Of a DNA stretch of 64,000 nucleotides, positions 4,397-27,582 are shown one piece after another. The DNA lies in assembly GCA_963776275.1 (NCBI GenBank), contig CAVZMI010000021.1, positions 1 through 64,000 of the forward strand, read 5' to 3'. Both the position numbers and the translations under genes were made by a program. The notes below the pieces were generated by a model. It saw only the letters and a list, made by a program, of their open reading frames with translations. It did no database searches and was not told the DNA's origin. How positions within the stretch are numbered: position 1 is the stretch's first letter; each line of letters opens with the position of its first letter. The stretch comes from Ignavibacteriota bacterium (GTDB taxonomy: Bacteria; Bacteroidota; Ignavibacteria; UBA10030; CAVZMI01).

Positions 4397-4416
4397 CGGA
4401 TTAGTACCATATAATA

Positions 4417-5671: not shown

Positions 5672-5699
5672 TTTTTACTTTTTAATTTTTCCTTTTTCC
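5672..5699 (+). repeat. (TTTTTNN)4 heptamer tract
   Basis: tttttac tttttaa tttttcc tttttcc; same type at 7489-7516 and 24559-24586. Confidence 0.75.
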
Positions 5700-5783
5700 T
5701 TAAAATTTGTACATGACTGCACTCTAATGCAACATTCCGGATACATAAAACAAGCGGTTTAGTACAATGAATATAGACCCGGT

Positions 5784-6314: not shown

Positions 6315-6325
6315 CGTACGCCTCC

Positions 6326-6880: not shown

Positions 6881-6954
6881 ATGGCTTTTCTCTGCTTTGA
6901 TCATATTTATCCGGGAAAGTGTCAGCAATGTATTGAAAAAGGAAGAAAAAAACA

Positions 6955-7220
6955 TGTCCTGAGCGAGCGGAGCGAGTCGAAGGGCTTGTCCTGAGCGAGC
7001 GGAGCGAGTCGAAGGGCTTGTCCTGAGCGAGCGGAGCGAGTCGAAGGGCTTGTCCTGAGCGAGCGGAGCGAGTCGAAGGGCTTGTCCTGAGCGAGCGGAG
7101 CGAGTCGAAGGGCTTGTCCTGAGCGAGCGGAACGAGTCGAAGGGCTTGTCCTGAGCGAGCGGAACGAGTCGAAGGGCTTGTCCTGAGCGAGCGGAGCGAG
7201 TCGAAGGGGAGTCGAAGGAC
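6955..7220 (+). repeat. Tandem array of 8 x 32-bp REP-like units
   Basis: Unit tgtcctgagcgagcggagcgagtcgaagggct; units 6 and 7 carry a g>a variant; last unit ends ...gaaggggagtcgaaggac; no spacers. Confidence 0.95.
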
Positions 7221-7254
7221 GGGGCGGGACTTGGCATGACGGACTAGACTTGCT

Positions 7255-7516
7255 TCCTTTACCTTTTCCTCTACCTCATCCTCTACCCCCTCACTCACTA
7301 CATTCGCTCGCTCCACGAAGTGGTACCCTTCGGTACGCCTGCGGCGTGCTCAGGGTAAACTTTAGTGCGGGATAAACTTTACCTGTCTTTACCAGATTCC
7401 ACCCCTCCGGGGTTCTGATTTTTTTTACTATCCGAGAACCTACCAAGATACCGCCCCTTACAGGTCGTAGACCTCCGGGGCTCATCTGTTTTTCCTTTTT
7501 AATTTTTAATTTTTCC
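7255..7516. repeat. Composite intergenic region of nested palindromic elements, hexamer tract and heptamer tract
   Basis: 6-bp-period cct(c/t)nn tract; cccttcggtacgcctgcggcgtgctcagggtaaac; acccctccggggt-type palindromes; (TTTTTNN)4 at 7489-7516. Confidence 0.7.
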
Positions 7517-12502: not shown

Positions 12503-12877
12503 TTACTGCGCGCTCGAAATGGCATTTTGGATTGCGAGGACGATATCGGCAATCCTCATTGGTTTTTGTATGAAGGAATGAATTCCGGCAGTATTAATCT
12601 CAGCAGGTAACTCGAGCGGGGAGTGGCCGCTGATAATGATTACCGGGACACCAAGTTCGTGCTCCCGGATATATCGGGCAAATTCAATTCCATTCATGAT
12701 CGGCATGTCAAGATCAACGATTGCTACATCCGGTTTTTTCTTCATGATTTCACTAAGTCCCGTCTCTCCATCCGGCGCTGTAATACAGGTGATATTCTCT
12801 TGCGCAAGAAGTATTGAAATGCTTTCCAGAAACGATGTATCGTCATCCACCACAAGAACCGTAACAGCGTTCGGCAT
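12503..12877 (-). CDS. Single-domain response regulator
   Basis: VLVVDDD, DLDMP, ISG, QKP receiver motifs. Confidence 0.92.
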   Translation of the reverse strand: MPNAVTVLVVDDDTSFLESISILLAQENITCITAPDGETGLSEIMKKKPDVAIVDLDMPIMNGIEFARYIREHELGVPVIIISGHSPLELPAEINTAGIHSFIQKPMRIADIVLAIQNAISSAQ

Positions 12878-12899
12878 GCAAATTCTCCTGTATCCTTTA

Positions 12900-13430
12900 T
12901 TACAATGATTCGACCGAAGAGATTTTTTTCAGAGTGACAGTCTGCGTCTTTGCATCGTACACAGCCTGGATCATCCACCGGAACGATGCCTGTGGTGTCT
13001 GATCAATCCCATGAAAAACAAGACAGCATATTGATCCGGGTGAAAAAGAGATTTTTTTATTCATACCGATCAGGGTCGATGCCGTGATCCCGATTGTCGG
13101 TTCATGTCCAACCAGAGCCAGAGAATCCAGGTGTTGATATTGCGGGAGAAATCGTAATATCTGTTCGGGCGATCCTCCCGCACCGAGTGCCAGAATAATT
13201 TCGACTTTATTCGGAGAGTTGATTATCGCCGATAGAATTTCGGCAGTCTGGACTGCTCGAAGCAACGGGCTTGAAAAAATCCGCTCTATCAGTATTTGTT
13301 GATCGGCACACCAACGGCCGACCTTCTTCACGACTTCTCTTCCATCCGAAGAGAGAACGCGGTAATCGTCGGGAACATCCCCGGAATTGCGATCAACTGC
13401 TTCTGCGTGTCGGATAAGATATAGTATCAT
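12900..13430 (-). CDS. sixA: Phosphohistidine phosphatase SixA-like
   Basis: LYLIRHAEA, SSPLLRAVQTA, LVGHEP. Confidence 0.85.
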   Translation of the reverse strand: MILYLIRHAEAVDRNSGDVPDDYRVLSSDGREVVKKVGRWCADQQILIERIFSSPLLRAVQTAEILSAIINSPNKVEIILALGAGGSPEQILRFLPQYQHLDSLALVGHEPTIGITASTLIGMNKKISFSPGSICCLVFHGIDQTPQASFRWMIQAVYDAKTQTVTLKKISSVESL

Positions 13431-14428
13431 CGAACAAATGATATTATTTCTCCTCCTCCTTTCATCACTGCATCGAGAATAAGCTGATTTTTTAAACCCT
13501 CTTCCCCTGGTATTGACGGAGTCGTATCGTCCATGATACATCGGGAGAAATCATCAATCTCATCAGTGTACAGATTGCCGACAGGAACGATAAACTCTTC
13601 CGTAACAGGCTCATCCGGATCCTCGGCAGTTGTAAGCGTGATCAGGGGAGAATACATGATCCATGAAAAACCGAAGCATGTAATCATCCCCTTTGAACCT
13701 ATAATCTCAAGCGTGGTTCGCCGAATTCCGGATACGAACGATACCGTGACATTCGCCAGTGTTGATCCGCGGAATTTCATGGCGATCACAGAGGATGATT
13801 CTGTGAGGAGCTCCGTCGGTTCGGGCTGTATGACCGAGCGAATTGTCTCCACTTCATCATCGAGGACATATCGGAGCGTGTCGATACAGTGAACCCCGAT
13901 ATCGAAGACCGGGCCGCCGCCTGCAAGTGTGCGGTCGAAAAACCACGAGCGCTGTGAGTCTCTTGCCGGAAACACGAACTCACACCGGACGGTTGCAACT
14001 TTTCCAATGCGACCACTCCGGATCATGTCCTTGATTTTCCGGACAGCAGGCGAGAAACGCACCATATGTGCCACCATCAGCTTAACGCGGTTGGTACGGC
14101 ATGCATCTATCATTTTTCGGCATTCTCCGGCATTCATTGCCATCGGTTTTTCTACCAGCACATGTTTACCGGCTTCGGCTGCAAGGATTGTCTCTGCACA
14201 GCGTGTCGAATTCACTCCCGTACTGAAGACTACCTGTATCTCCGGATCTCTCACGAGTTCTGCCGGGTCGGTGTATGCCCGACATGACCATTGGTCGGCG
14301 ATTTTTTGGGCTGCCTCGCGATTCCGCTTTTGTAAGGCGACAAGCTTCGAAAATTTTGCCCTAAGAAATGCAGGAGCGAGGGTCTTCTCTGCAAAACTCC
14401 CAAAACCTACGATGCCATAGTTTATCAT
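13427..14428 (-). CDS. Gfo/Idh/MocA family oxidoreductase
   Basis: GIVGFG, VLVEKP, GGGPVFDIGVH. Confidence 0.93.
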   Translation of the reverse strand: MINYGIVGFGSFAEKTLAPAFLRAKFSKLVALQKRNREAAQKIADQWSCRAYTDPAELVRDPEIQVVFSTGVNSTRCAETILAAEAGKHVLVEKPMAMNAGECRKMIDACRTNRVKLMVAHMVRFSPAVRKIKDMIRSGRIGKVATVRCEFVFPARDSQRSWFFDRTLAGGGPVFDIGVHCIDTLRYVLDDEVETIRSVIQPEPTELLTESSSVIAMKFRGSTLANVTVSFVSGIRRTTLEIIGSKGMITCFGFSWIMYSPLITLTTAEDPDEPVTEEFIVPVGNLYTDEIDDFSRCIMDDTTPSIPGEEGLKNQLILDAVMKGGGEIISFVR

Positions 14429-14643
14429 GTCTTCCTGAAAAATTTGTTCGGATCAAATTTTGGTTTTCGGATAACATACTTTTTGTGCATGTCTTCCAAT
14501 TTCTGCAGTGTCATTACATCAAGTTCTTCATCATCTTTGTGACGCTTCATTGCCATCTCGAACACATATTCTTCGTCACGCGATAATTTGTTGCAGAAGT
14601 CATTTAGATCCGCAAGGAGTTCTTTCTGACGAGAAAAACTCAT
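14425..14643 (-). CDS. Small hypothetical protein
   Basis: Probable start MSFSRQK; stop overlaps the start of the downstream oxidoreductase. Confidence 0.6.
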   Translation of the reverse strand: MSFSRQKELLADLNDFCNKLSRDEEYVFEMAMKRHKDDEELDVMTLQKLEDMHKKYVIRKPKFDPNKFFRKT

Positions 14644-14857
14644 TCGGCGTCCCTTCACAATGATAGAAAGAAAATACAAAATTTCCAGAAAGAAGTCGAG
14701 CAAATCGTTTGAAAAGATAATCCATTGACAGTAAATAACGATGCCCTGGGCCATATTTCCGATAAAAAGCTTGATTCTTCTATTGGAAAATTTTATGTTT
14801 CCACAGTTGTTCTCGAGATGAAGCACATCCCAGAAAACTAATATTCGGGATATCCGT

Positions 14858-15673
14858 ATGCGCCGTTTTCTCATGATTCTATCGCTCATGTTGCTTTCTG
14901 CTTCGCAAAATCACGCCCAGAGATCCCTACAACTCCCCGATTCCTTGATAAAGGCAATCCGGGAATCCGAAAAGATCGGGAAGGCGATCTACGAGAACGA
15001 TTACTTTTCGGCTGCAGCAACAGATATTCTATTCGAAAAGGAAATATTACCGCATGAAAAAAATATCCGCGGATGGCTCACACTAGAAACACCGACACAA
15101 TGGGTCATAAAGTTTTATGGGATGGATGGAAATGATTATGTCTCACTTCATGAAGTTACTTACTCAAAAAAGAATCCAAAATATCCGCAGTTATGGTCGC
15201 ATGCCAGACCCCCCGCCCTTTCGTCTTCGGAACAGGCAATGTGCAAGGCACGAACACTGGCAATCCGGCAAAAATTCATGCAATGTGAAGACCATTACAA
15301 TTCAATCGTTTTCCCCGGATCGTTATTCGGCTTATCCGGATGGGTCATATATTTACTCGCGGCAACGCAACGACAGGGCGAAGTAGTAATCGGCGGACAC
15401 CATCGCATGGACATCTCATCGGATGGAACTACACTCATAGCAAAACATCAATTATCCGAAGCCTGCCTGACCATTCCATCGATTAAAAAATCGCACCTCG
15501 ACAAAGACGCCAATGTTGAAGGCCTTGTTGTTACGCAACTCCTTACTGATTATCCGACGGAAATTCATGTTTTTTTGAGTCTGCTCCACCATTATCCATT
15601 GTATGTTGCAACAAAAAATTATCGCTGGAATGTCCACGACGGGAAAATCGATCTGATATCGATCGAAAAATAA
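14858..15673 (+). CDS. Hypothetical secreted protein
   Basis: 271 aa with signal peptide; IGGHHR and PTEIHVFLSL segments. Confidence 0.7.
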   Translation: MRRFLMILSLMLLSASQNHAQRSLQLPDSLIKAIRESEKIGKAIYENDYFSAAATDILFEKEILPHEKNIRGWLTLETPTQWVIKFYGMDGNDYVSLHEVTYSKKNPKYPQLWSHARPPALSSSEQAMCKARTLAIRQKFMQCEDHYNSIVFPGSLFGLSGWVIYLLAATQRQGEVVIGGHHRMDISSDGTTLIAKHQLSEACLTIPSIKKSHLDKDANVEGLVVTQLLTDYPTEIHVFLSLLHHYPLYVATKNYRWNVHDGKIDLISIEK

Positions 15674-15937
15674 TAGCTATCATCGGTAGATGATAGACAC
15701 ACCGATAAAAGACGACAATATATGGCAAAGAATTTTTAAAACAGACCGGAATCGGCATCAGGCGAGGGAACTGCTGATTATAGTAGAGTGTTATTTTTCG
15801 TACATATTACACCCACATAAACAAAGGAATAACAAAGAGTAAAGAAAGGTATAAAAAGGGCTATATTATAAGGGGTTAATCGAGGGTAGATCGAGTTTTT
15901 GTTCTACTCTTTTTTTTATATCTTACGCATTTTCTTG

Positions 15938-15966
15938 TTGAATATTTGTTGCCGATGTGTTATATT
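15938..15966 (+). promoter_or_regulatory. Sigma70-type promoter of the first operon of the element
   Basis: TTGAAT-N17-TATATT with TG extension, upstream of ORF 16014. Confidence 0.55.
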
Positions 15967-16013
15967 GATAGTGCAGGCAATTTCACCTATCATTCTATCA
16001 ATGGAGGATCGTC

Positions 16014-16394
16014 ATGAAACACATTTTAAGCACCGAACAGGCCGCACATATTATTCATGCAATGGAAACGTTGCAGGATATTCCCTCGACAGAACTGGAA
16101 ATTATTGATTCGAGGTTGCATTTTGTCACTGCCGTATATAGTGCCGAGGATCAAGACTTGTTTAACGATGAAATAAACGAAGCGGTGAAAATACCCCGGT
16201 GGGATGCACGATATGCCTTTAATCTTCTCGAAGAAGCAGGTCGAAATATTCGTGACCTTCGGAAAAAAATTGAAACGTTGGTCGATGAATTACAGGATTC
16301 TTGTGAGAGAGTTTCTAAAGAAGTTTCTTGCACAAGTAAACTTTTAACTAAAGAACAACAAAAAATCATATCGAGTATTATACTGGCTGAATGA
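16014..16394 (+). CDS. Hypothetical protein (helical/coiled-coil)
   Basis: 126 aa ORF with GGAGG RBS. Confidence 0.7.
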   Translation: MKHILSTEQAAHIIHAMETLQDIPSTELEIIDSRLHFVTAVYSAEDQDLFNDEINEAVKIPRWDARYAFNLLEEAGRNIRDLRKKIETLVDELQDSCERVSKEVSCTSKLLTKEQQKIISSIILAE

Positions 16395-16442
16395 ATTTTT
16401 ACTCTAATATTCTCACTCACTGCATTTTCATGGAGATCTATC

Positions 16443-16799
16443 ATGAAACCTAAATTAAGCAGACTAAGAATTGATTCAATCGGTTTTATGACGATGGCAC
16501 GTAAAGAGAGAAAGTATATAACTTTCTTTTATTATCCATCTGTTTTTACGTCATACTTCAAAGAGAAAAATCCACGCGAGGGAGAACCGATTTATATTCT
16601 ACGTAATCAATGCAGAACTAATAAAGAGGTGGGAAGGTTATACGAGGCTATTGGATGCTGTGGGTTTATGTTTGCCACCGAATTCGAGGAAAGAAAAGAA
16701 AGGGCGCTATCAAAGCATTACATTCTGGAAATTGTGCCTTCAATGTACAACGTTCTAACGGTACCCAACCTCAGATTAGAACAACATAAATTCAATTAA
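16443..16799 (+). CDS. Hypothetical protein
   Basis: 118 aa ORF with GGAG RBS. Confidence 0.65.
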   Translation: MKPKLSRLRIDSIGFMTMARKERKYITFFYYPSVFTSYFKEKNPREGEPIYILRNQCRTNKEVGRLYEAIGCCGFMFATEFEERKERALSKHYILEIVPSMYNVLTVPNLRLEQHKFN

Positions 16800-16825
16800 C
16801 TCACTATTATTTTTTGAGGTTCATT

Positions 16826-17902
16826 ATGAGTGTTTCGATTCGTAAACGCATATTAAAAAGCGGGAAGACGCGGGTCTATTTTGATATTTACGGATATGAT
16901 GATATACCCGGTCATAAAAAACGCGAGACGAAGAAGTATGAATTTCTTCCCGGTGATCGAGAGAACAACAAAAGAATGCTAATGCAGGCGGAGTTAATAA
17001 AGGCGAAAATAATTGAGGATCTAAACAATGAACGCTGGGGTCTGCGGAGTTCGGACAAACGGGAAAGGGGGTTTGTGAAATTCGCACAGGATTTCATAGA
17101 AACTCGGACAGCACCGAACACTAAAATATCTTATAAAAGGGCCTTGCAGCACTTGATTAATTTCGGGGGGGCCGGGCTTACCTTTGCCAGTCTAACTACC
17201 GGCAAACTTGAACAATTCCGGGCCTATCTACTTGAAAAGGTCTCTGCAAATTCAGCTCAAATGTACTTCGTAAGAATTAAGACGGTGCTGCGTAAAGCCG
17301 TGAACGAGGGCAATCTTGCCTTTAATCCGGCGGCGGGAATCATTATCAAAAAGCAAGAGAAACTCCCTTCATACCTTACGATTAAGGAAATCAGGGCACT
17401 GGCAAAAACACCTTGCCAGAACGCACAGGTGAAGGCTGCCTTTTTATTTTCGTGTTTCTCAGGTCTCCGATATGGAGACGTTGATTCCTTGACCTGGGAT
17501 CGGGTAAAAGAGGGATATTTAGTCTTCACTCAAAGGAAGACAGGGATTCCTGAACGTCTTCCATTATCTCAGCAAGCCTTGAAGATTCTACGAGCACAAA
17601 AGAGAGTCAAACCTAACCCTCGACTCCGTAGATCGAGACCGGCGAACTGTGTCTTTCTCTTGCCGTCTCAGCAGCAAGTCGATAGGCAATTAAAGGGATG
17701 GGCAGCGGATGCGGGGATCGGGAAATCAATATCATTCCACAAGGCCCGGCATACCTTTGCGACTCTTGCTCTATCGAGTGGCGTTTCCCTTTATGTGGTT
17801 TCCAAATTGCTCGGACATAAAAACGTACAGACAACAGAAATTTATACGCAAGTGATTGATTCTCGAAAACGACGTGCAATAGGTAAATTGCCCCGGCTCT
17901 AA
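16826..17902 (+). CDS. Tyrosine recombinase/integrase (Bacteroidota type)
   Basis: Intact catalytic set: GLRYGD (R), QRKT (K), FHKARHTFAT (HxxR), LLGH, TTEIY (Y). Confidence 0.95.
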   Translation: MSVSIRKRILKSGKTRVYFDIYGYDDIPGHKKRETKKYEFLPGDRENNKRMLMQAELIKAKIIEDLNNERWGLRSSDKRERGFVKFAQDFIETRTAPNTKISYKRALQHLINFGGAGLTFASLTTGKLEQFRAYLLEKVSANSAQMYFVRIKTVLRKAVNEGNLAFNPAAGIIIKKQEKLPSYLTIKEIRALAKTPCQNAQVKAAFLFSCFSGLRYGDVDSLTWDRVKEGYLVFTQRKTGIPERLPLSQQALKILRAQKRVKPNPRLRRSRPANCVFLLPSQQQVDRQLKGWAADAGIGKSISFHKARHTFATLALSSGVSLYVVSKLLGHKNVQTTEIYTQVIDSRKRRAIGKLPRL

Positions 17903-17944
17903 ATTATAAAATACAAAATGTCAAAATGAACACGAAAAAAATAT

Positions 17945-18018
17945 AAGCGCTTCTTCTCCGTCACTCTCAAAAGGGGTGGGCCTATCGTGTAGGCTTTGAC
18001 GCGGGGAATGAAGCGCTT
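17945..18018 (+). ncRNA. Candidate three-stem (C4/CI-like) structured RNA
   Basis: Outer stem aagcgcttc/gaagcgctt plus ttctccg/cggggaa; inner hairpins with loops caaaa and tcgtg. Confidence 0.5.
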
Positions 18019-18037
18019 TTGTTTTGTGAGGTGAGAA

Positions 18038-18604
18038 ATGAAGAAAGAAACTAAATACAAAATTGCTGGTGAGTTTTTAAAGATTGAAGAAACACCAACA
18101 GGTTTTAGAATATACTATATGAACGAATTCGGAAAAATCTGGTGGTTTTCAAAAAGTAAGACAAGCCTAATTGATACAATAACAAACTGGGAAGTAGATA
18201 TTCCGAGATTGCAAAAAGAACTATCGAAAACCAGCGATCCAGTGAAGGCAGGAAAAATAAAAAGCAACATCGAATGGCGTATACATAATACTTTATGGCC
18301 GGAAATGTACAAAGCCTATTGCCGGGGTGAAAACCTTGATAGATTTTTCAGCAAACGAATCAAGCAACAAGAAGTATACACGGGAAAGCGTACACCTTAT
18401 CGGGGAAAATCGGAAGGTGCAGCACACAAAATTTTTAAGATGGCCGAAAAAAGGAAAGATAAAGATATAAGGGCAGCAGCACATATTTTTTTCAATACCC
18501 ACACATTTCTGGAACGTCCCGGACTTACGTTTGAACAATTTTATAACAGCATTATAAAAGTGCCTCACTCTAAAAAATTGATAGTGAAAAGTAGTGAAAA
18601 GTAG
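18038..18604 (+). CDS. Basic hypothetical protein between integrase and Xis-like gene
   Basis: 188 aa, Lys-rich, GAGG RBS. Confidence 0.75.
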   Translation: MKKETKYKIAGEFLKIEETPTGFRIYYMNEFGKIWWFSKSKTSLIDTITNWEVDIPRLQKELSKTSDPVKAGKIKSNIEWRIHNTLWPEMYKAYCRGENLDRFFSKRIKQQEVYTGKRTPYRGKSEGAAHKIFKMAEKRKDKDIRAAAHIFFNTHTFLERPGLTFEQFYNSIIKVPHSKKLIVKSSEK

Positions 18605-18620
18605 TGAACGGTACTGAACG
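18581..18620 (+). repeat. Four 10-bp direct repeats (putative protein-binding sites)
   Basis: atagtgaaaa gtagtgaaaa gtagtgaacg gtactgaacg. Confidence 0.75.
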
Positions 18621-18660
18621 AAAATTAGTGCTTTTGATATAGCTTCTTTTATTTTTCATA

Positions 18661-18770
18661 CCGTAGACTGATGTTGAAGCCTACGGAGAAGTCCGCAAGA
18701 GTTTTAAAGCCTTGTTGGACAGGCTCTCCTACTCAAAAAGGTAGGCGGGCTTCTCCAATGAGGCTTTTTT
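18661..18770 (+). promoter_or_regulatory. Structured leader with alternative terminator/antiterminator folds
   Basis: aaagccttgttgga...tccaatgaggcttt followed by T-tract, competing with ggagaagtccgc/gcgggcttctcc pairing. Confidence 0.55.
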
Positions 18771-18798
18771 ATTTATAACAATAAGGGGAGAAAGGGAA

Positions 18799-19074
18799 GT
18801 GGAGAATAAAATAATTCTCGAAAAATTGAACGAGATCGGGGAGACACTGAGAGAACTAAAAGGGCAAAGTACACCGCCGCCGATGCCATTCAAAGCAGCG
18901 TGTTCTTTTTTAGGTGTCAAGGCGGGAACGCTCTACCGATGGAATTCAGAGGGTGTCCTTCCATTTTTCCGGCCAAATGGAAAAGCGATCTTCTATCTCC
19001 GTTCCGACTTGGAAAAATTTCTCATGCAGCACCGTGTTCCGTCGAGAGATGAATTGCGAGAAGGGGGAATTTGA
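18799..19074 (+). CDS. Excisionase/AlpA-like helix-turn-helix protein
   Basis: FKAACSFLGVKAGTLYRW...LPFFRPNGKAIFYLRSDLEKFL, HTH_17-like pattern. Confidence 0.88.
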   Translation: MENKIILEKLNEIGETLRELKGQSTPPPMPFKAACSFLGVKAGTLYRWNSEGVLPFFRPNGKAIFYLRSDLEKFLMQHRVPSRDELREGGI

Positions 19075-19075
19075 A

Positions 19076-19984
19076 TTGCCACGAAGTCGCTTAATCAAGC
19101 CGGAATTCTGGTCAGATAGAATTGTGAATCAACTTTCTTTTGAATCTCAACTACTTTATATCGGACTTGGAAATTTTTGTGACGATTATGGTTGCTGTTT
19201 AGATTCAACTCGAAAAATCTCAGGTGAAATCTTCCCGCTTAATGATAATGTCACCGAAAGAAAAGTGAATAAATGGAGAAAGGAATTAATTGACTCTCTC
19301 TTAGTGGTTTCGGTTCAATATGATGGCGTAAGTTATTTAATTATGAGAAATTGGAAACAAGATCAAAAGGTTGAGCACCCTTCGGGCCGGAGATGGCTAA
19401 CCGATGAAATTCAAGAAAAACTCATGAATGAATATATACAGATTCACGAGGGACTCATGAGGGACTCACGCCCTAATATGAATATGAATAAAGAAGATGA
19501 AATAGAAAAGGAAGACCTGAAAGAGAAATTTAGTGAGTTTGTTTTCCTAACAAAAAAAGAACATCAAAAGCTGGTAGAGAAGTACGGTGAAGAGGATACC
19601 GCCGGAGCTATCGTTGACTTTGATCTCTACCTTCAACAGAATGAAGCAAATCGGAAACGATATACCTCTCATTACGCGGTATTTTTACGATGGGAGATGG
19701 AAGCATACTTGAAGAAAAAAAACGGTCGAGGAAAACAATCTATTCAACAGCAATCAGCCCCAGGGCCAACAGAGTCTACTTCACCAATGCCGAAAGGAAT
19801 CGGCTCAGATAGATTCTATGAATTTGCAAAAAAAAGATTGAAGGGAATAACTCAAAAAGAAGATAATGGTATGGTAACATTTTTCGGTACTGGAATTTAT
19901 GTTACACAAATTGAATGGATGGATCAAGAAAGACGTGAAGAAGAGGAAGCATTAAATAATCTGGTAGGAACCGGGTCCGGGTGA
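19076..19984 (+). CDS. Phage-type replication initiator (replisome organizer/O-like)
   Basis: TTG start after AAGGGGG; PRSRLIKPEFWSD...LLYIGLGNFCDDYG N-terminus; FLTKKEHQKLVEKYG...YTSHYAVFLRW C-terminal domain; internal repeats. Confidence 0.8.
   Translation: MPRSRLIKPEFWSDRIVNQLSFESQLLYIGLGNFCDDYGCCLDSTRKISGEIFPLNDNVTERKVNKWRKELIDSLLVVSVQYDGVSYLIMRNWKQDQKVEHPSGRRWLTDEIQEKLMNEYIQIHEGLMRDSRPNMNMNKEDEIEKEDLKEKFSEFVFLTKKEHQKLVEKYGEEDTAGAIVDFDLYLQQNEANRKRYTSHYAVFLRWEMEAYLKKKNGRGKQSIQQQSAPGPTESTSPMPKGIGSDRFYEFAKKRLKGITQKEDNGMVTFFGTGIYVTQIEWMDQERREEEEALNNLVGTGSG
19409..19515 (+). repeat. Iteron-like 11-bp repeats followed by A-rich hexamer tract (putative ori)
   Basis: attcaagaaaa, actcatgaatg, (one degenerate unit), attcacgaggg, actcatgaggg, actcacgccct in register, then aatatg aatatg aataaa gaagat gaaata. 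Confidence 0.65.
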
Positions 19985-20247
19985 TAAAACGAATAGATAC
20001 AATTCAGCCTTTGATGGTTGAAACATTACGGAAACTTGGAGTATCTGTCCAGCCTATTCATGTAATCGGTAAGGGTTGCCCCGATATTCTCTGTGGATGG
20101 AAAAATAGAAACTACCTATTTGAGATCAAGTCCGATAACGGAAAATTAACACCGGAAGAAATTCGATGGCATGAAACATGGAAAGGCCAAGTTCATACAA
20201 TACATTCAGTGGAAGAGATTTTGAATGTCCTTTTTGAAAAAAGGTAA
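19981..20247 (+). CDS. VRR-NUC-like PD-(D/E)XK nuclease
   Basis: GCPDIL...LFEIKS..GKLTPEE..W pattern; overlaps the rep stop codon. Confidence 0.8.
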   Translation: MIKRIDTIQPLMVETLRKLGVSVQPIHVIGKGCPDILCGWKNRNYLFEIKSDNGKLTPEEIRWHETWKGQVHTIHSVEEILNVLFEKR

Positions 20248-20300
20248 CAAGAGATTTGCAAAGTGTCAAAGTCAATTTATAACAAAGGAAAGGAAACACG

Positions 20301-20501
20301 ATGGAGACTATAATTAAAAATCTGTCCAACCTCGAATTAATCAAGGACGATCAAGGGCAACACTGGCTCAAATTCAAAACTGATTCTGGAAAGATCTGTT
20401 CAATTAGTGTGGAGAACTTCTTTCCGGGCCTTGTACCGAAAGACATGACAGTCAGAGAATGGGCAAAGGAACAAATTGAAATCCATTCCCGTGAGAGATA
20501 A
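20301..20501 (+). CDS. Small hypothetical protein
   Basis: 66 aa with AAGGA RBS. Confidence 0.6.
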   Translation: METIIKNLSNLELIKDDQGQHWLKFKTDSGKICSISVENFFPGLVPKDMTVREWAKEQIEIHSRER

Positions 20502-20504
20502 GAC

Positions 20505-21992
20505 ATGATATACCATGAATTCACAGGTATTGTTGATTTGTGCGGGACTTGGACTATCGGGCTTTCGATAGACGATTCATTCACCGGAATCACTTATCCT
20601 TCGATAGATTGTTTTAAAGAGATCGGTGAAAAAGGACAGGTACAAGATCGGAAGGTGGGTAAAATAAACTTAGATACTTTAAAATTATTCATTCAAGACG
20701 TACACACGACTGAATATCCCGAAGGATTCTGGTATAAAATCTGTCACGGAATTGATATAGAACTCCCGACATTCTTAATTAAACTTAATGAAGGCGATGA
20801 AGATACACTTTATTTTTACGGTCGGCTTAATCTGAATGATAGTTCGTGGGATGAACCCTACCGTAGAAATAACGTGGATTGTATTCGAGAACATGAAATT
20901 TCACTTTTGCCCATCATAACGGCTTTTGACGATGTGAAAATTGATGATTGGATTTATGAAATGATGTATCCCATCTATTTGCATGAAACAGAAAAAGCAG
21001 GTCCAAATGGAATTCGTTGGGTTGTGTCATTCAAGAATGTTATTTTGGCACTTTTATGTAAAACTTTCGGTCAATATTATGATGAGGATGATGTTACATT
21101 CCCCACGGTCGCCGGGGGTGCTGAAATACTATATCGACGCAGTAGCACCGATTATGATTTGACAAGTGCGTATTTCCCTGTTAAACAATGGAGTGGTGAT
21201 ATTCCACCAACTGAATTATTACTATGTAATTATTGGGATGGAACAATAGGCGACGATCCCCAACATCTAAACAATCTTTATGGGAATGCGGGCGATTTGT
21301 TTTTTGCAATCTGTAAAGAGCGGGGTCTTATACCGGTTGTGGGATATAATCTTGTTAATAACCATGTACAAATTAATTTCATTCAGTGGGATGAAAATTA
21401 TGCCAATGCTTTAGTATTCGATGAAGAGCCAATTGAAGTCTCAGGAAAAACTACACCTGAGTATTTTGTCAATGCCATACGGACATATTTAAAAATAGAT
21501 TCTACTTTGATGGAATGGTATATGATCGGCCCATTGGGATCGATGTGGTATTCAACATTGCCTGAAAACGTGACTTGGGATATAGACATTGAAGCATTAT
21601 GGACAGCGAAAATCGGTTTAATTGATGATAACTTACCCAGTGATGGGAGTGATCTATCGCATTTCCTCGTTAACGCCGCAGGCGATCCTTATACTGACGC
21701 CGTTTGGTCTGGTTATCCCAATAATTCATTATTAATTTTACTAATGTACATCATGCACCACGTAGCATACAGCGACTTGAATGGATCGCTTAAAATGAAT
21801 CCCAATGTATATAACATGACCTACGTTGGAATCAAAGGGAATGACGGGGTGACAAATACGCACGCGAATATGCAGATAACGAGAGAAACATCTATTGACG
21901 GAAATCTTTACAGGGCGAACCGGATTACACAAAAACCGAAAGAGTTTGTAACTGAAATTGAATGGATCCAAAAATATACTCTACCACCTTAA
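20505..21992 (+). CDS. Acidic 495-aa protein, possibly phage tail hub/baseplate-like
   Basis: Long ORF is certain; function inferred only from the acidic/aromatic beta-rich pattern (IKLNEGDEDTLYFYGRL; SIDGNLYRANRITQKPKEFVTEIEW). Confidence 0.5.
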   Translation: MIYHEFTGIVDLCGTWTIGLSIDDSFTGITYPSIDCFKEIGEKGQVQDRKVGKINLDTLKLFIQDVHTTEYPEGFWYKICHGIDIELPTFLIKLNEGDEDTLYFYGRLNLNDSSWDEPYRRNNVDCIREHEISLLPIITAFDDVKIDDWIYEMMYPIYLHETEKAGPNGIRWVVSFKNVILALLCKTFGQYYDEDDVTFPTVAGGAEILYRRSSTDYDLTSAYFPVKQWSGDIPPTELLLCNYWDGTIGDDPQHLNNLYGNAGDLFFAICKERGLIPVVGYNLVNNHVQINFIQWDENYANALVFDEEPIEVSGKTTPEYFVNAIRTYLKIDSTLMEWYMIGPLGSMWYSTLPENVTWDIDIEALWTAKIGLIDDNLPSDGSDLSHFLVNAAGDPYTDAVWSGYPNNSLLILLMYIMHHVAYSDLNGSLKMNPNVYNMTYVGIKGNDGVTNTHANMQITRETSIDGNLYRANRITQKPKEFVTEIEWIQKYTLPP

Positions 21993-22007
21993 AGGACGGT
22001 ATTAGAA

Positions 22008-22199
22008 ATGACAGACGGCGTAAAGAATATCGAATTCAAATTAATTCAACTTGATGCCGAATTGACCGAAAAAGGTTATGAGATGTCGAGTGAAGATGAT
22101 ATTTCAGCGAATGAACTCAAAAACTTTTATGAAGCTGTTCAAACCTTCAGCGACTCGGCTCAAAAAGTTATTGAGGTGCTGGAGAAAATAGAAAAATGA
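22008..22199 (+). CDS. Small acidic helical protein
   Basis: 63 aa with AAGGA RBS, co-directional with neighbours. Confidence 0.6.
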   Translation: MTDGVKNIEFKLIQLDAELTEKGYEMSSEDDISANELKNFYEAVQTFSDSAQKVIEVLEKIEK

Positions 22200-22260
22200 T
22201 TAACAGTACCTTAATGCAGATATATGCACAAATTCACGTCACTAAATTGCGATAGATACT

Positions 22261-22524
22261 ATGGAGAATGAAACTAAGCTGTTGACAGGTACGGAGAACT
22301 TGCCGGGGACTATCCCATCGAAAAGAGCGATCCGATTAAAGAGCATTTTCGATATTAACCGGCTACTGGCTCGGACTGTTAATCAGCTCATACGGGGACA
22401 GATCGAGGAAACGAAGGCCGGGAAAATCGGATATCTCTGCAACGTAATGTTGAAGAGTTTTGAATTAACAGAACTTGAACGAAGAATCGGAGAGCTGGAA
22501 AAAAGAAATAATGGAGAACGATAA
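22261..22524 (+). CDS. Small protein with C-terminal coiled coil (possibly small-terminase-like)
   Basis: RLKSIFDINRLLARTVNQLIRGQI...KIGYLCNVMLK..ELTELERRIGELE. Confidence 0.6.
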   Translation: MENETKLLTGTENLPGTIPSKRAIRLKSIFDINRLLARTVNQLIRGQIEETKAGKIGYLCNVMLKSFELTELERRIGELEKRNNGER

Positions 22525-22739
22525 TGGAAAAACTTAAAGTACGTATTGAATCACTGGAAAATTTGCAGCAACCAGAAAAGCCCGCAACAATAATTGTGTA
22601 TCACAAGAACGAAATGACCAAAGCAGGGGCGATCACGAAATATGAAAAAGAACACGATATAAAATTCACAGATGATGATGAATTGATTATTTTGGAAATC
22701 GTTGATGTTGTCACCAACAAAGAGAAAGAAGATGAATAA
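22524..22739 (+). CDS. Small hypothetical protein, N-terminal RIESLE motif
   Basis: TAATG translational coupling to the upstream ORF. Confidence 0.65.
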   Translation: MEKLKVRIESLENLQQPEKPATIIVYHKNEMTKAGAITKYEKEHDIKFTDDDELIILEIVDVVTNKEKEDE

Positions 22740-22989
22740 AAAGGAAATGACAACAGCCGATGCTTTACGAGCGGTCGGGTTGCCTACTTTTATTTTAAAG
22801 GGCTTTCCAGATCCGGACGAAATGGAATCGGAAATAATAGGCGAAAAAAAACCCCTTGTGATTCAGCAAGCCGAAGCATACGTAAAAGATCACCCGGCGG
22901 AATTCCCCGACTGCACTTCGGAACTTGCACCGAAACGAGCGCTTTATCTTCATGCAATGCGTATAATTAAATTCACAGGCGAAAAATAA
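22732..22989 (+). CDS. Small hypothetical protein
   Basis: Probable start MNKKEM overlapping the upstream stop. Confidence 0.6.
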   Translation: MNKKEMTTADALRAVGLPTFILKGFPDPDEMESEIIGEKKPLVIQQAEAYVKDHPAEFPDCTSELAPKRALYLHAMRIIKFTGEK

Positions 22990-23017
22990 TTCAACTAAAC
23001 GAAAGGATTAATACACA

Positions 23018-23392
23018 ATGGCACGCAGTGATGAAATACAAAAACAGCTTATCGAAGGTATTGAAGCAGAAGAAATACGCTTGAAAAATTATGCTACAGA
23101 GTGTAAAGAAAGACTCGACAGCACAATTGCAGAATTTGAAGCGGCAAAAAAGGAACTTCCCGAATTAGAGAAAGAACTACTGACAAAAGACAGATTGCTG
23201 AATAAGCTTACTAAAGAGATTGAAGAACTTAAAGATAAAATAGCAATTATGGGGAATATCATTCGCTTGGAAAGCGGGTCATCATACTTCTCAGGAATCA
23301 AACGCGCAGAGGTGAGTTTTCAACAAGCCGATTATGCGGCAAAGAGTTATGTTGAAACGAAAATTAAAAGATTGGCGAATCCTAAAGTTTAA
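23018..23392 (+). CDS. Coiled-coil hypothetical protein
   Basis: 124 aa, heptad-rich E/K/L composition, AAGGA RBS. Confidence 0.7.
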   Translation: MARSDEIQKQLIEGIEAEEIRLKNYATECKERLDSTIAEFEAAKKELPELEKELLTKDRLLNKLTKEIEELKDKIAIMGNIIRLESGSSYFSGIKRAEVSFQQADYAAKSYVETKIKRLANPKV

Positions 23393-23396
23393 CAAT

Positions 23397-23484
23397 TGAG
23401 TGAGTTCTTTCCCGGTGTTGGCATTCGCCGGTTCTTCTCACTCGATAGGGCGGCGGCTATCTTGTTCCCCGCCGCCTTACTTTT
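23397..23484 (+). terminator. Tandem hairpins, the second terminator-like
   Basis: tgagtgag...ctcactcg hairpin, then agggcggcgg/ccgccgcctt stem followed by actttt. Confidence 0.55.
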
Positions 23485-23506
23485 AAATTAAACAGAGAGA
23501 CAGTTT

Positions 23507-23707
23507 ATGAATCAAGATGCACGTTTAAAAAAGCTTGAAACTCTTCCAGAGAATAACGAGATGGAATATACCGTTGAGATCGGCGGGACACTCGAAGAGG
23601 CAAAGAATAATTTTGAGAATTCAGATCGACAAAAGGAAACACTCTACATAATTTCAGTCGGCCCCGATGGAATGATTTCAGGGAAAAAGCATACTCTGAG
23701 AAAATGA
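23507..23707 (+). CDS. Small hypothetical protein, N-terminal RLKKLE motif
   Basis: 66 aa ORF flanked by hairpins. Confidence 0.6.
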   Translation: MNQDARLKKLETLPENNEMEYTVEIGGTLEEAKNNFENSDRQKETLYIISVGPDGMISGKKHTLRK

Positions 23708-23714
23708 TTTTTAT

Positions 23715-23771
23715 GAGGCGGCAATGCAGCAAGATAGCGAAAGTCCCCTTGATTGCCGCCTTGTTACTTTT
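23715..23771 (+). terminator. Hairpin/terminator near the right end of the element
   Basis: gaggcggcaat/attgccgcctt stem followed by gttactttt. Confidence 0.5.
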
Positions 23772-23878
23772 AGGGGGGTATAACTATGTATGGCTATCCC
23801 GGAATAATTCAACCTTGAGCGATCCTTGCGCGAAAAACGGGTATCTTTTAGCCTCTAAACTGAAAAATTGCCAGTTCC

Positions 23879-23907
23879 TTGCTTCCCGACTCGATCCTTC
23901 GTATATT
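23879..23907 (+). promoter_or_regulatory. Sigma70-type promoter
   Basis: TTGCTT-N17-TATATT. Confidence 0.55.
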
Positions 23908-23910
23908 CGC

Positions 23911-24032
23911 TTCGGTCTAATTGACCTAAAAGTGAGGTTTTCGGGTGTTCTTACCGCACATTTGTTGCCGGGAACGCCCCCAATTCATAGAAATCCTTAA
24001 ATATAGGCGCATTTTGAAAGAAATGCACTGAA
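23911..24032 (+). ncRNA. Candidate structured RNA / 5' leader
   Basis: Closing stem ttcggt/actgaa, long arm with gggtgttctt/gggaacgccc, and gcatttt-GAAA-gaaatgc hairpin. Confidence 0.4.
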
Positions 24033-24088
24033 AAGAGTAATTTTTCGTACGAATGTAGTATCTTGAGGTATCACACCTGGGAGTATTT

Positions 24089-24478
24089 ATGAAAAAAGAA
24101 TCGGCAATTATTCTGTGCATATGCAGCGGCGATTGTCCGGGGATGAAGAGAACCGATTTCGTAGAGCTCACGGAACGATTACGACTTGAAGTGCAGACAG
24201 ATCTTCTGGCAATTCACCCCCATATCTGCGATGAATCGGGTATCAACCTTCTGCGGGATATCATCAAACCGAACCGGTTTCATCTCATCGCCGCGTGTGG
24301 TGTCGACCGTCAGGGTGAGTCGCTCAAGGATGGTTTCAAGCGCGCCGGCGTTTCGATGGATAACATCCACTGGAAACCGGTTGATATGATCGGGAAGTCA
24401 ACACAAGAAGTCATAGAATCGATCCGTACGGCTCTTCAATCAGAGGGATTCATTCAACCGACATTGCATAACGCCTGA
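24089..24478 (+). CDS. Stand-alone heterodisulfide reductase subunit A-like (N-terminal Cys-rich domain) protein
   Basis: LCICSGDCP, HPHIC and IAACG motifs. Confidence 0.7.
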   Translation: MKKESAIILCICSGDCPGMKRTDFVELTERLRLEVQTDLLAIHPHICDESGINLLRDIIKPNRFHLIAACGVDRQGESLKDGFKRAGVSMDNIHWKPVDMIGKSTQEVIESIRTALQSEGFIQPTLHNA

Positions 24479-24558
24479 CTTTGAACATCATAATATCTTT
24501 TTTTACTTTTGTGCCTTCGGCGATGCTCGCTCCACAAATTAGTGCGACCAAATCGTAC

Positions 24559-24586
24559 TTTTTCCTTTTTAATTTTTACTTTTTAA
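24559..24586 (+). repeat. (TTTTTNN)4 heptamer tract
   Basis: tttttcc tttttaa tttttac tttttaa. Confidence 0.75.
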
Positions 24587-24593
24587 TTTTAAA

Positions 24594-25181
24594 ATGCTAT
24601 TCCCATCCCCAGATCATATTGCCCGGATTCTCTCGGCTCTGTCCCGCCGTGATCTGTCCACGCCTAAGTATGAGAAAGCCGCAGTGCTTATACCTCTCAT
24701 CGCACGTAAAGAACCTGGCGATTACGACCTTCTGCTCACACTGCGTACTGAATCGGTTGAACATCATAAAGGGCAGGTTTCATTCCCCGGCGGTACAACA
24801 AACAACAATGATCGGGATGAAATTGCGACTGCACTACGCGAAGCGGAAGAAGAAGTGGGGATTGCATCATCCGAGATTCAAATACTCGGGACGTTAAACA
24901 ATGTCTGGACACCTTCAGGTTTTATCATCACGCCCATTGTAGGATATCTGACACATTTTCCACACCTTGTACTCCAGCATGGCGAAGTCGCTGAAGCGTT
25001 TTGCGTACCGCTCTCGTTCTTTTCAGACCCTGCCAATATGACAACGGAAACTCGTTACTATGAAGGACAACCACGGGAAGTATATTTTTACCACTACGGC
25101 AACTTTACAATCTGGGGAATAACGGCGATTATCATCCGTGAGCTTGTTCAGGTTCTTGTGTCTGGAATACGCACACTCTGA
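24594..25181 (+). CDS. Nudix CoA pyrophosphatase (NudL-like)
   Basis: AAVLIPL, LLTLR..HKGQVSFPGG, TALREAEEEVG, IWGITA. Confidence 0.92.
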   Translation: MLFPSPDHIARILSALSRRDLSTPKYEKAAVLIPLIARKEPGDYDLLLTLRTESVEHHKGQVSFPGGTTNNNDRDEIATALREAEEEVGIASSEIQILGTLNNVWTPSGFIITPIVGYLTHFPHLVLQHGEVAEAFCVPLSFFSDPANMTTETRYYEGQPREVYFYHYGNFTIWGITAIIIRELVQVLVSGIRTL

Positions 25182-25204
25182 TTGGATGGGATCAAAGAAT
25201 GGAA

Positions 25205-26257
25205 TTATTTCTTCATTTCAAGCATTTTGCGACGGACCTGACTCTCAATCTGAAAATGCTCTTCTGCGGTAATTCCGAAGCGGTCTCGCAGCGATGAAAG
25301 ACGTTCTGACTCTTCAAGGCTTACTGTTCCATCGCTCCATGCAACTTCAACTGCATCACTGTAAAAACGTTCCTGCGTTTTTTTCTTCATCTGGATGGTT
25401 TGTTCCGGGGAAATTTTTAAACCGTGGGCAATTCCGGTGATAACACGTGTATATTCATCATCCACTAATCCTTGAATCAGGAGTTGTTCAATCGCCATCG
25501 TAAACAGTTCTTTCACGCACTCCGCAAACCGAAGTTCGCGTTCGTCTTCAAGGTGGAGCAACTGCTCTTCAAGTGCTTTTCCAGCCGTTGTCGACATTTC
25601 TTTGATCTCGTTCTCGAGTTTTATCTGTGCTTCGGTCTCAAGACGCTTCTGGAATGTTGAAACCGCAACCTGAATTTGTTCGGTCGATCGTTTCTGGTTT
25701 TCGGCTTCGTATTCATGAATTTCTTTATCGATTTTCTCTTTGTACTCTGTCTGCGCCTTCGTCTGTGCTCCTTCCACTGTCTCCCGTGCAATCCGATCGG
25801 CATTCGCACGAATCAACTCGAGAATCTCATCGGCACTCGTCCCCCTGACCACAAATTCTTCATAGATAGGACGCTTTGCCGGTTGTGATTTTTCCGTTTG
25901 AGCCTTTTTCCCATTATCGGATTCCTGTGCCGTTTTTTTTGCCAGGGGAGATGGAGGGGGCTCGATTTTTGTCTGAGACTGTTTTTTTTCGGATAGTGGT
26001 TCTGTTACAGCATTTTTTATCGCCGGTGGTTGGGCTGCTTCTCTTTTTAATCGTTCCTCTTCTGCTTTCTTTTGAGCCTCTTCACGCGCGTATTGAATCC
26101 GTTCTTCGTACGCAAGAATATAGAGATTCCGCGGATCGGCAATACGAGCTTTCGCGATTTCCTCATTTGCTCGATCAAATTCCCCCGCCTTAATAAGCTT
26201 GTCTGCGGTCTTTAGATGGTCGGACGCTATGCGCTTGTTTTCGTCAACAAGTTTCAT
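25205..26257 (-). CDS. Hypothetical protein: TPR-like N-terminus, coiled coil, TerB-like C-terminus
   Basis: ADKLIKAGEFDRA...DPRNLY; VAWSDGTVSLEESERL..LRDRFGI. Confidence 0.7.
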   Translation of the reverse strand: MKLVDENKRIASDHLKTADKLIKAGEFDRANEEIAKARIADPRNLYILAYEERIQYAREEAQKKAEEERLKREAAQPPAIKNAVTEPLSEKKQSQTKIEPPPSPLAKKTAQESDNGKKAQTEKSQPAKRPIYEEFVVRGTSADEILELIRANADRIARETVEGAQTKAQTEYKEKIDKEIHEYEAENQKRSTEQIQVAVSTFQKRLETEAQIKLENEIKEMSTTAGKALEEQLLHLEDERELRFAECVKELFTMAIEQLLIQGLVDDEYTRVITGIAHGLKISPEQTIQMKKKTQERFYSDAVEVAWSDGTVSLEESERLSSLRDRFGITAEEHFQIESQVRRKMLEMKK

Positions 26258-26334
26258 GAATAGTAAGAGGATGGAACGACATGAGGCTGTAATTTATTTC
26301 CTCAGAGTAAATGTACAGGATTCTCATGCAATTG

Positions 26335-27582
26335 TCAAACATGAATGTCACGCGGGTCTCTGACCCGGAGAAAAAGCCATCCCATTGCCCCGATCGCAAA
26401 CAGGGCTGAGAGTATGAAAATTCCTTCGTACCCTGTAGATTTTATCAATACTCCGGCTGCAAGACTGAGAAGGTAGAAAGGGGCAACAATAGTATTTAAA
26501 AGCGCCACATACACAGGCCGTCGGTCGTCCGGCGCTATTTCGATTGTCATATTAAATCGAGACATCATATCCATTCCAAGATTCATTCCCAGGAAAAGAA
26601 AGACAACCCCGTAAAACATCGGGACCTGGGAAAAAAGCGCCGTCACGACAGTCAGTATGATGCACAGCGACGCAAAAAATAACGCCCGTCGATATCCATA
26701 CCGATCACCAATAAACCCCATAATCAGTGAACCGATAATCTGTCCGGCCATCATCACCATAGTCCATTGACCGATGAATTCCTTCGATAAATGATATTTA
26801 GAAAAACCGTAACCGATAAAAAATGCATTACTCATCGTTGCCGATGTGAGAAGAATACAAACAACAATTAAATTCCGGAAATTGTTGTCAGACTGCAATA
26901 CTGAACGAAGCATAGCAAGCGATATTTCAGAGTGTTCAGTAACAGCCCGACCAGGTGTCGGAGCTTCACGGATTTGTCTTACAACCAACAGAGAACACAT
27001 CTGCAGGAAAAAAGCTCCAAAGAAAATGAAAGCGTAATTCAGGGGATACCGGACATGCGCAAGAATTACTGTCAGGAGCAGGCCGGTCCCGAGTGCGATA
27101 AGTGTACCGACTGCAGTGCGGAACCCGAGTAATCGTCCGCGCCGATACTGTGGTGTAACTTTCGACATCATATCATACCACGCCGGCGTGCTCAATCCAG
27201 TCAGAAGTTGATTCACAATGTACAGAACAAGGAATATGTTCAGTGCAATCAGAGGGCGTTCGGACGCAAAAATAAGAATAGCAACAGCAATAAGTAGAAG
27301 CGAGAACCGCTGAGGAACACCCACCCAAAAAACAAAATCTTTTCGTACCGGATACCTGTGAAGTATCCGCACCGTTAGGAGTTGCGGGAGAAACCAGCCG
27401 GCAAATCCAATAAGCGGGATCAACCCTATTGTTGTCGTATCACCGCCAAGAACCTGGGCAACAGCCGGTAGCGTTGTCTGTGTCGAGAGAAATCCCGCTG
27501 TTCCCGCATAGAACACTCCTTCGATTGCGTTCAGAATAAAATTGCGCCGTTCTTCTTTCTCGGACGACTCAATCATAATCAT
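26335..27582 (-). CDS. MFS transporter
   Basis: About 12 hydrophobic segments; GFIGDRYGYRR motif A. Confidence 0.9.
   Translation of the reverse strand: MIMIESSEKEERRNFILNAIEGVFYAGTAGFLSTQTTLPAVAQVLGGDTTTIGLIPLIGFAGWFLPQLLTVRILHRYPVRKDFVFWVGVPQRFSLLLIAVAILIFASERPLIALNIFLVLYIVNQLLTGLSTPAWYDMMSKVTPQYRRGRLLGFRTAVGTLIALGTGLLLTVILAHVRYPLNYAFIFFGAFFLQMCSLLVVRQIREAPTPGRAVTEHSEISLAMLRSVLQSDNNFRNLIVVCILLTSATMSNAFFIGYGFSKYHLSKEFIGQWTMVMMAGQIIGSLIMGFIGDRYGYRRALFFASLCIILTVVTALFSQVPMFYGVVFLFLGMNLGMDMMSRFNMTIEIAPDDRRPVYVALLNTIVAPFYLLSLAAGVLIKSTGYEGIFILSALFAIGAMGWLFLRVRDPRDIHV

Follow-up and report, generated by a model that had tools for sequence, protein, structure and literature searches.

What is a gene for a phage tail hub doing in a small integrated element in which no other virion gene can be recognised? 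The question was raised by an open reading frame (ORF) at positions 20505-21992, on the forward strand, of a 64,000-nucleotide stretch of DNA from an Ignavibacteriota bacterium (assembly GCA_963776275.1, contig CAVZMI010000021.1; the whole stretch is hereafter called the window). For its product, P0001, an initial annotation had guessed a tail-hub or baseplate-like fold and had suggested that the element may supply its own tail-tip component. The interpretation was partly right: the hub fold and the solitary virion-type gene both stood, whereas the supply of the hub to the tails of a helper phage is a step that we infer and put forward tentatively.

The ORF starts with ATG and contains 495 open codons, and the opposite strand carries many stops. 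P0001 is acidic (pI 4.46; 71 Asp and Glu residues against 34 Lys and Arg) and aromatic (14 Trp, 2.8%; 31 Tyr, 6.3%), in agreement with its earlier description as an acidic, Trp/Tyr-rich protein of 495 amino acids. The two motifs quoted in that description are present at residues 92-108 and 463-487, and both sit within blocks that the protein family conserves towards the N and C termini. When 1.84 billion cluster representatives were scanned in full with HMMER, 105 relatives of P0001 were obtained at E ≤ 1e-3, 34 of them at or below 1e-10 and three at or below 1e-30 (self included), most being 440-530 amino acids in length. The nearest relative, P0002, is 36% identical and P0003 is 30% identical, and P0001 diverges by at least 64% from every known relative. 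Sixty-one rows drawn from this family made up the alignment A1. Its three invariant columns (Gly74, Gly106 and Arg128 in P0001) are all kept by P0001; of the seven near-invariant ones, six show the consensus residue in P0001 and the seventh has Ile for Leu. The protein spans positions 3-479 of the 480-position family profile. The 105 HMMER relatives and the retained invariant columns show that the ORF did not arise by chance but is a real, intact gene.

To place the protein structurally, we used an AlphaFold2 model built from A1, which had a mean predicted local distance difference test score (pLDDT) of 88.7, a predicted template modelling score (pTM) of 0.89 and no segment below 50. According to DSSP the model is beta-rich, as had been supposed. 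Foldseek found 60 PDB matches with E-values of at most 0.001, and among the matches listed (48 entries, ranks 1-50) all were baseplate hubs or their homologues; the fold guess was therefore correct, and an enzyme or non-virion fold, the alternative to it, is not what the search returned. The matches include hubs of extracellular contractile injection systems (eCIS), diffocin, Mu gp44, MuSo2, VgrG and T4 gp27, as well as Tal of phage p2, pb3 of T5, and the proteins of 80alpha, Bxb1 and Douge. The VgrG matches cover only the gp27-like part, at approximately residues 5-352 of the VgrG chains. In BFVD the model matched caudoviral tail proteins, and the protein-language-model neighbours of P0001 were viral clusters, the nearest Pfam-named ones being tail families. 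The multi-domain hub fold of the gp27/Mu gp44/gpD/Tal-N superfamily covers the whole of P0001, and the chain stops after the hub core, with no spike, lysin, fibre or receptor-binding extension. Compared with Mu gp44 (1wru), the MuSo2 43-kDa tail protein (3cdd), T4 gp27 (1k28), lactococcal phage p2 Tal (2wzp), 80alpha (6v8i) and T5 pb3 (7zhj), P0001 shows 7-11% sequence identity with about 300 residues aligned, and its chain exceeds that of Mu gp44 or gp27 by some 110-170 residues. The predicted structure thus identifies P0001 as a genuine phage tail-tip/baseplate hub of the gp27/Mu gp44/Tal-N fold. A hub of this trimer-forming type would cap the tail tube and receive the end of the tape measure.

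P0001 matched no Pfam family, and its best PHROG match had an E-value of 0.32; among the 61 family members there were one stray Pfam match and one match to a PHROG tail-fibre profile (0.004). Sequence and profile searches of the PDB with P0001 and its family gave nothing below E 1. No match was obtained by tblastn of P0001 against 50,697 phage records, and a word-index homologue search found only the protein itself. As P0001 has no significant match to a curated profile, its family, with about 100 divergent members, is a hub-fold sequence family without a curated Pfam or PHROG model, and such hubs will escape annotation pipelines.

The genomic context of the relatives agrees with the fold. Searched as a hidden Markov model (HMM), the A1 profile matched in four genomes of a phylum-wide sample of 400 others, all four in the window's own order, and in 13 of the 276 other genomes of that order; in the window's own genome P0001 is the single copy. 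Context was read in ten loci, three more matches (on a 2.6-kb contig and at contig ends) not being evaluated, and the PHROG scan of the context covered 19 ORFs plus 57 of the 92 called, with short and opposite-strand calls omitted. In seven of the ten loci (L006, L007, L031, L032, L033, L034 and L037) the hub comes directly after an ORF with a PHROG tape-measure match (E from 3e-5 to 5e-11), which answers positively the question whether the homologues lie downstream of tape-measure genes. In L008 and L009 it comes directly after a protein of 938 or 969 amino acids without assignment, and in L030 directly after one of 384 amino acids, also without assignment. The same operons contain a major head protein, a head protease, a head-tail adaptor, Neck1 and an endolysin, and the scanned ORFs gave no sheath match. 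With tape-measure, head and lysis genes as neighbours and no sheath match, the P0001 family is, judged by gene order, the hub of siphovirus-like prophages, with a gene that directly follows that of the tape measure and is often translationally coupled to it. In L006 and L030 it closes the tail operon, and two to three genes separate it from host genes in L008 and L031; the tail tips of these phages seem very simple. In genome G145 (L008, 14229-15866) the prophage ends three genes past the hub, beside groES/groEL-like host genes. In prophages with a hub of this family, the gene for a protein of 400-680 amino acids was also observed upstream of the tape measure, a few genes away; the C-terminal domain of this protein matches baseplate wedge or virion structural PHROGs, the lowest E-value being 4e-39, and the protein may represent a major tail protein with a decoration.

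A quick maximum-likelihood tree was calculated from 44 rows, namely 35 family members of 440-530 amino acids (among P0001-P0047) and nine locus hubs. P0001, P0002 and P0003 cluster together (Shimodaira-Hasegawa-like approximate likelihood-ratio test, SH-aLRT, 98), apart from the hubs of known context, and P0001 has an unusual composition and a long branch. Searches for P0001-P0004 in viral contigs and for P0002 and P0003 in genome contigs yielded no locus; P0002-P0011 are encoded on contigs of 1.8-33 kb. With P0002 as a query, metagenome contigs yielded L038, in which a member of 558 amino acids, 25% identical (HMM E-value 4.6e-118), comes after a 530-amino-acid ORF within a co-directional operon of 18 genes.

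The boundaries of the element that carries the P0001 gene were obtained from genome G401 of the same genus, which has an empty site: window positions 12500-15803 and 24034-27500 are contiguous there, with 95-96% identity. Relative to G401 the insertion measures 8,247 bp (15804-24050; both junctions aligned to the empty site), and it is flanked by ATTTTTCGTAC, which is exact over 11 bp and has an imperfect extension of 17-19 bp. ARAGORN found no tRNA in the window, and the attachment (att) site therefore lies outside tRNA genes. Of three exact copies of the sequence ATTTGTTGCC in the window, two share a strand and are located immediately inside the ends of the island; these two may be arm-type integrase sites. 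The island has a GC content of 0.395, compared with 0.453 in the remaining window, is 88.8% coding and has all its genes on one strand.

Table 1. Features of the island and the wedge-like proteins of related loci. Positions refer to the window unless a locus is named; aa, amino acids.
Feature	Position	Strand	Observations
attL AGAGTGTTATTTTTCGTAC	15785..15803		exact core ATTTTTCGTAC at 15793-15803; empty site in G401
ATTTGTTGCC	15944..15953	+	near left island end; second exact copy at 23960-23969
two small ORFs, 126 aa and 118 aa	16014..16799	+	upstream of integrase; no significant Pfam, PHROG or PADLOC match
tyrosine integrase, 362 aa	16814..17902	+	Phage_integrase 1.1e-23; Phage_int_SAM_5 1.9e-14; phrog_1 8.3e-57
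188-aa ORF	18038..18604	+	no match in Pfam, PHROGs or PADLOC; no usable ESM Atlas match
excisionase-like HTH_17 protein, 91 aa	18799..19074	+	HTH_17 1.1e-9; phrog_25262 4.9e-13; phrog_66 (excisionase/regulator) 2.7e-7
replication initiator/replisome-organizer-like protein, 311 aa	19049..19984	+	phrog_2149 5.1e-22; phrog_1408 2.6e-21; phrog_13246 1.3e-10; no Pfam match
VRR-NUC-like small endonuclease, 88 aa	19981..20247	+	phrog_93 6.7e-11; weak VRR_NUC 0.015
66-aa ORF	20301..20501	+	stop 3 nt before hub ATG; no family match
tail/baseplate hub P0001, 495 aa	20505..21992	+	predicted gp27/gp44/Tal-N fold
five small co-directional ORFs (63, 87, 71, 95 and 124 aa)	22008..23392	+	last one coiled-coil; weak coiled-coil-type matches only
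two small ORFs, 66 aa and 98 aa	23507..24000	+	no matches
attR AGAGTAATTTTTCGTAC	24034..24050		exact core ATTTTTCGTAC at 24040-24050
PHROG-wedge-like protein	L007 4418-6469; L031 5249-6448; L033 5886-7088; L037 4634-5854; L006 11-604

The length of the replication initiator (Rep) is counted from an internal ATG, the longest ORF beginning at 18914; apart from this protein, the integrase and the hub, all ORFs of the island encode 188 amino acids or fewer. The hub is its only recognised virion gene, as the initial annotation had noted: the other 15 ORFs gave no virion-protein match in Pfam and PHROGs at E ≤ 1 save weak coiled-coil matches to tape-measure profiles, although remote homology in the small ORFs is possible. 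The coiled-coil matches (E 0.0036 for the 124-amino-acid ORF and 0.031 for the 63-amino-acid one) come from proteins too short for a tape measure. Among all 16 ORFs, Pfam and PHROGs gave no capsid, terminase, portal, packaging, lysis or conjugation match, and no terS, capsid or portal gene, by which phage-inducible chromosomal islands (PICIs) and capsid-forming PICIs (cf-PICIs) are recognised, was identified in these scans, in which nine small ORFs carry no assignment. No match to the island was found by blastn in the 50,697 phage records. One weak match to the replication initiator was found in the 276 other genomes of the order and none in viral contigs, and a single 51%-identical protein is encoded on a 1-kb contig. 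What we have, then, is a discrete element with its own integrase and att sites, its own replication module and no recognised genes for an autonomous virion, as in phage satellites. In contrast to known hub genes, the P0001 gene has no surrounding tail operon, and the position next to a tape measure that its homologues occupy is not found in the island, where no tape-measure gene was recognised. The missing neighbour is an anomaly, not evidence against the hub fold.

Related islands show which part of the element is shared. Related integrases (E ≤ 1e-40, 34-52% identity) are present in 16 of the 276 other genomes of the order, and ten sister loci were fetched, all ten with a related integrase. 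An HTH_17-like gene stands beside the integrase in eight of them (tblastn), and these same eight have either a rolling-circle Rep (seven loci) or a primase (one, L060), a count that rests on 33 selected ORFs that were scanned. L057 and L062 showed neither the HTH_17-like gene nor a Rep or primase, L062 being a 3-kb stub at a contig end. None of the ten loci matched the A1 hub profile, even at E ≤ 10. The closest sister, L060 (contig C330 of genome G524, 315-7448), is bounded by a perfect 17-bp direct repeat, GAATATATGCGATAAAT, with copies 7,117 bp apart, which makes it a 7.1-kb island. Its integrase is 52% and its small nuclease 37.5% identical to those of the window island, and the hub is absent. 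At the DNA level the two resemble each other at the 3' end of the integrase gene and near the right end, where window positions 23928-23976 are 75% identical to the right end of L060; a repeat related to ATTTGTTGCC is found at both ends of L060, and the region after the nuclease gene differs between the two islands. By these comparisons, the backbone is that of a family of integrative-replicative islands, 7-8 kb in size, in which replication modules are exchangeable and the right arm varies; among the sister loci examined the right arm holds a hub in the window member only. Two smaller observations were made on L060: its primase is encoded by two overlapping ORFs (279 and 206 amino acids), which may be a frameshift or two genes, and three copies of a 29-bp repeat (1231-1374), which may be iterons or an origin, lie just upstream of the small nuclease gene.

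From these results a function may be proposed for the island. The likeliest reading, though one somewhat short of probable, is that it is a satellite-like element that supplies its own hub in the tail of a helper, giving a chimeric tail as PLE11, an element of the cholera bacterium, does. It would be a phage satellite ('hitcher'). Infection by a helper whose tail is compatible, or induction of such a helper, would lead the island to excise, replicate and be packaged into helper-made particles, and its hub would replace the hub of the helper at the start of tail assembly, from which chimeric tails would result. Such tails would favour transfer of the island, or they would escape or impose interference with tail assembly, cf. 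PLE11. Dependence on a helper, packaging and incorporation of the hub into tails are the steps that we infer.

Satellites have long been thought to steal complete tails. The PLEs (PICI-like elements), to which PLE11 belongs, are approximately 18 kb in size. A 2026 report describes PLEs as the first satellite family known to place its own parts in helper tails (PMC12987554). According to what it sets out, the genes of PLE11 include those for a tape measure, a chaperone of tail assembly and the baseplate hub BhuB, which is 41% identical to the hub of the helper; the tails of PLE virions are chimeric, as seen by electron microscopy, western blot and mass spectrometry; and deletions of the tape-measure gene tmp lower transduction by 96-99% (PMC12987554). 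The genes tmp and tac are given as present in all PLEs and the hub in some of them, not all (PMC12987554). The window island resembles PLE11 as described there in being an integrative element without a full virion set that has its own baseplate hub. The PLEs differ in having a gammaproteobacterial host and a lytic myovirus helper, whereas the window island belongs to another phylum, is of another size and backbone, and carries the hub only. As neither tmp nor tac, which that description assigns to all PLEs, was found in it, the island is PLE-like at most in part and is not a PLE, the comparison being drawn here with descriptions of PLEs.

Two other kinds of element come close in other respects. 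The VEIMEs, integrative mobile elements encapsidated in virions, are described as small elements with integrase and replication genes, found inside marine virions and without capsid genes (PMC9618062). Like the window island they lack a major capsid gene and carry integrase and replication genes of their own; they are thought to ride helper particles, and their hosts as described include Flavobacteria (PMC9618062). The article as compared here mentions no tail hub, and a VEIME with a tail gene may exist. The cf-PICIs also encode part of the virion and take the remainder from the helper, but they make capsids and steal tails, whereas the window island has a tail part and no recognised capsid or packaging gene. 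Apart from the PLE11 paper (PMC12987554), our literature searches brought up no satellite described as having a tail hub. Satellite-encoded tail parts are already known, experimentally only in the PLEs of the cholera bacterium so far; new here are an island with a lone hub, a hub-fold family without a Pfam or PHROG model, and a family of 7-8 kb islands with integrase, HTH and Rep genes in this order.

A more general claim may be added, which we regard as rather unlikely. Hub-only satellites would be a distinct, minimalist form of phage parasitism, in which an island of integrase, excisionase and Rep genes with a single tail-nucleating hub takes over the tail production of its helper or decides which tails are built, and this form would have arisen independently in unrelated phyla, those of the window island and of Vibrio with PLE11 among them. 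If this were true, a single gene could serve two ends, since it is the hub that seeds the tail: sabotage of the helper and the marking of particles for the island. Were a satellite with only a hub established in a distant phylum, manipulation of the way in which tail assembly begins would emerge as a route open to mobile elements in general, and such a satellite would offer a very small, tractable system for asking how the tape measure, distal tail protein and tube of a phage accept or reject a foreign hub.

Several observations weigh against the proposal that the island furnishes helper tails with its own hub. The absence of the hub from all ten sister loci means that the island family does not conserve it and that it could be cargo of recent date, possibly without function; the hub-bearing island is a single instance; the evidence from gene context comes only from hubs outside the clade of P0001, P0002 and P0003; and the Pfam and PHROG scans of the island found no tape-measure or tail assembly chaperone gene, in contrast to the PLEs.

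Part of this evidence points to a hub that is a functionless passenger, captured by illegitimate or homologous recombination from a co-resident prophage into a small island of integrase, HTH and Rep genes and not yet decayed. Besides the hub-free sister loci, the variation that separates the window island from L060 past the nuclease gene, the absence of partner tail genes from the island scans, and the unusual composition and long branch of P0001 would fit such an origin. We nevertheless consider it unlikely. The ORF is full-length, its fold is confidently predicted and its invariant residues are kept; the hub starts 3 nt past the preceding stop in a densely coding island with no recognisable gene fragments; and, given its divergence from all known relatives, the gene is not a recent copy of a sampled prophage gene.

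An intact hub that is the only virion-type gene could also serve as a dominant-negative decoy, which would enter the tail-initiation complexes of an infecting phage whose tail is related, be unfit for the steps that follow and so block assembly of the tail, protecting the host population or favouring the island without ever being part of an infectious particle. The hub gene stands in a co-directional run with replication genes rather than in a late structural operon, and defence by blocking the assembly of tails is documented: Rta, from PLE11, acts in this way on the helper and is called the fourth known example (PMC12987554). As far as that report describes them, however, no known tail-assembly inhibitor is a hub homologue (PMC12987554), and PADLOC matched no defence system in the island. 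We consider a decoy unlikely, as we do a passenger; sequence alone cannot separate it from a chimeric tail, and the two can coexist.

The island might instead be what was left of a prophage after one internal deletion had removed all that lay between replication module and hub but had spared both att sites. In related prophages (L006, L030, L008 and L031) the hub is located at or near the right end, so that a single deletion could yield the present layout. On the other side, the sister loci share the backbone (HTH_17-like gene in eight of ten, Rep or primase in eight of ten) without a hub, and tblastn of all called ORFs from 12 related loci against the island matched the hub only, with no tape-measure or other structural fragment. 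Because the sisters share the backbone and have no hub, and because L060 is equally small, the small size seems to be ancestral and the hub to have been acquired as cargo rather than left over from a deleted prophage, which makes an origin by deletion highly improbable. That P0001 is no phage part but serves a secretion or injection system as a hub of VgrG-like or eCIS type can practically be set aside, since the VgrG matches end near chain residue 352 with no gp5-like OB-fold or beta-helix spike in P0001, the homologues follow tape-measure genes beside head and lysis genes, and the Pfam scan found no secretion-system genes nearby.

If the island does place its hub in helper tails, a helper may be sought in the host genome. 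The type IX secretion system (T9SS) is a mark of the phylum Bacteroidota, and the host genome encodes 115 T9SS C-terminal sorting domains, which fits Bacteroidota in the broad sense. The profiles Terminase_6N, TerL_ATPase, TerL_nuclease, Terminase_6C and Phage_capsid had no match in this genome, and a sub-threshold match to Phage_portal led to a large prophage on another contig, C29. The major capsid protein of this prophage matches Gp6.1 of PDB entry 9vel (1.8e-26) and a phi812-type capsid (2.4e-12). A tape-measure candidate of 1,061 amino acids, assigned by position and length only, is followed directly by P0114, a protein of 596 amino acids that is taken as the hub. The HMM of the A1 family found no match on C29 (best E 0.19), and no match resulted when the family was compared by hhalign with three large proteins of C29. 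Between P0001 and P0114, BLASTP gave an E-value of 3, and hhalign a probability of 0.7% between the family profiles. Because the two hubs, unlike BhuB of PLE11 and the hub of its helper, share no detectable sequence similarity, the resident prophage is, on these comparisons, not an obvious helper. A more likely partner is a siphophage with a hub of the A1 family, none of which is resident.

Outside the island, between its right end and a NUDIX gene, the window contains a dispersed repeat of approximately 35 bp (24556-24591), which matches seven other places in the same genome and at least four other genomes of the order with 87-100% identity.

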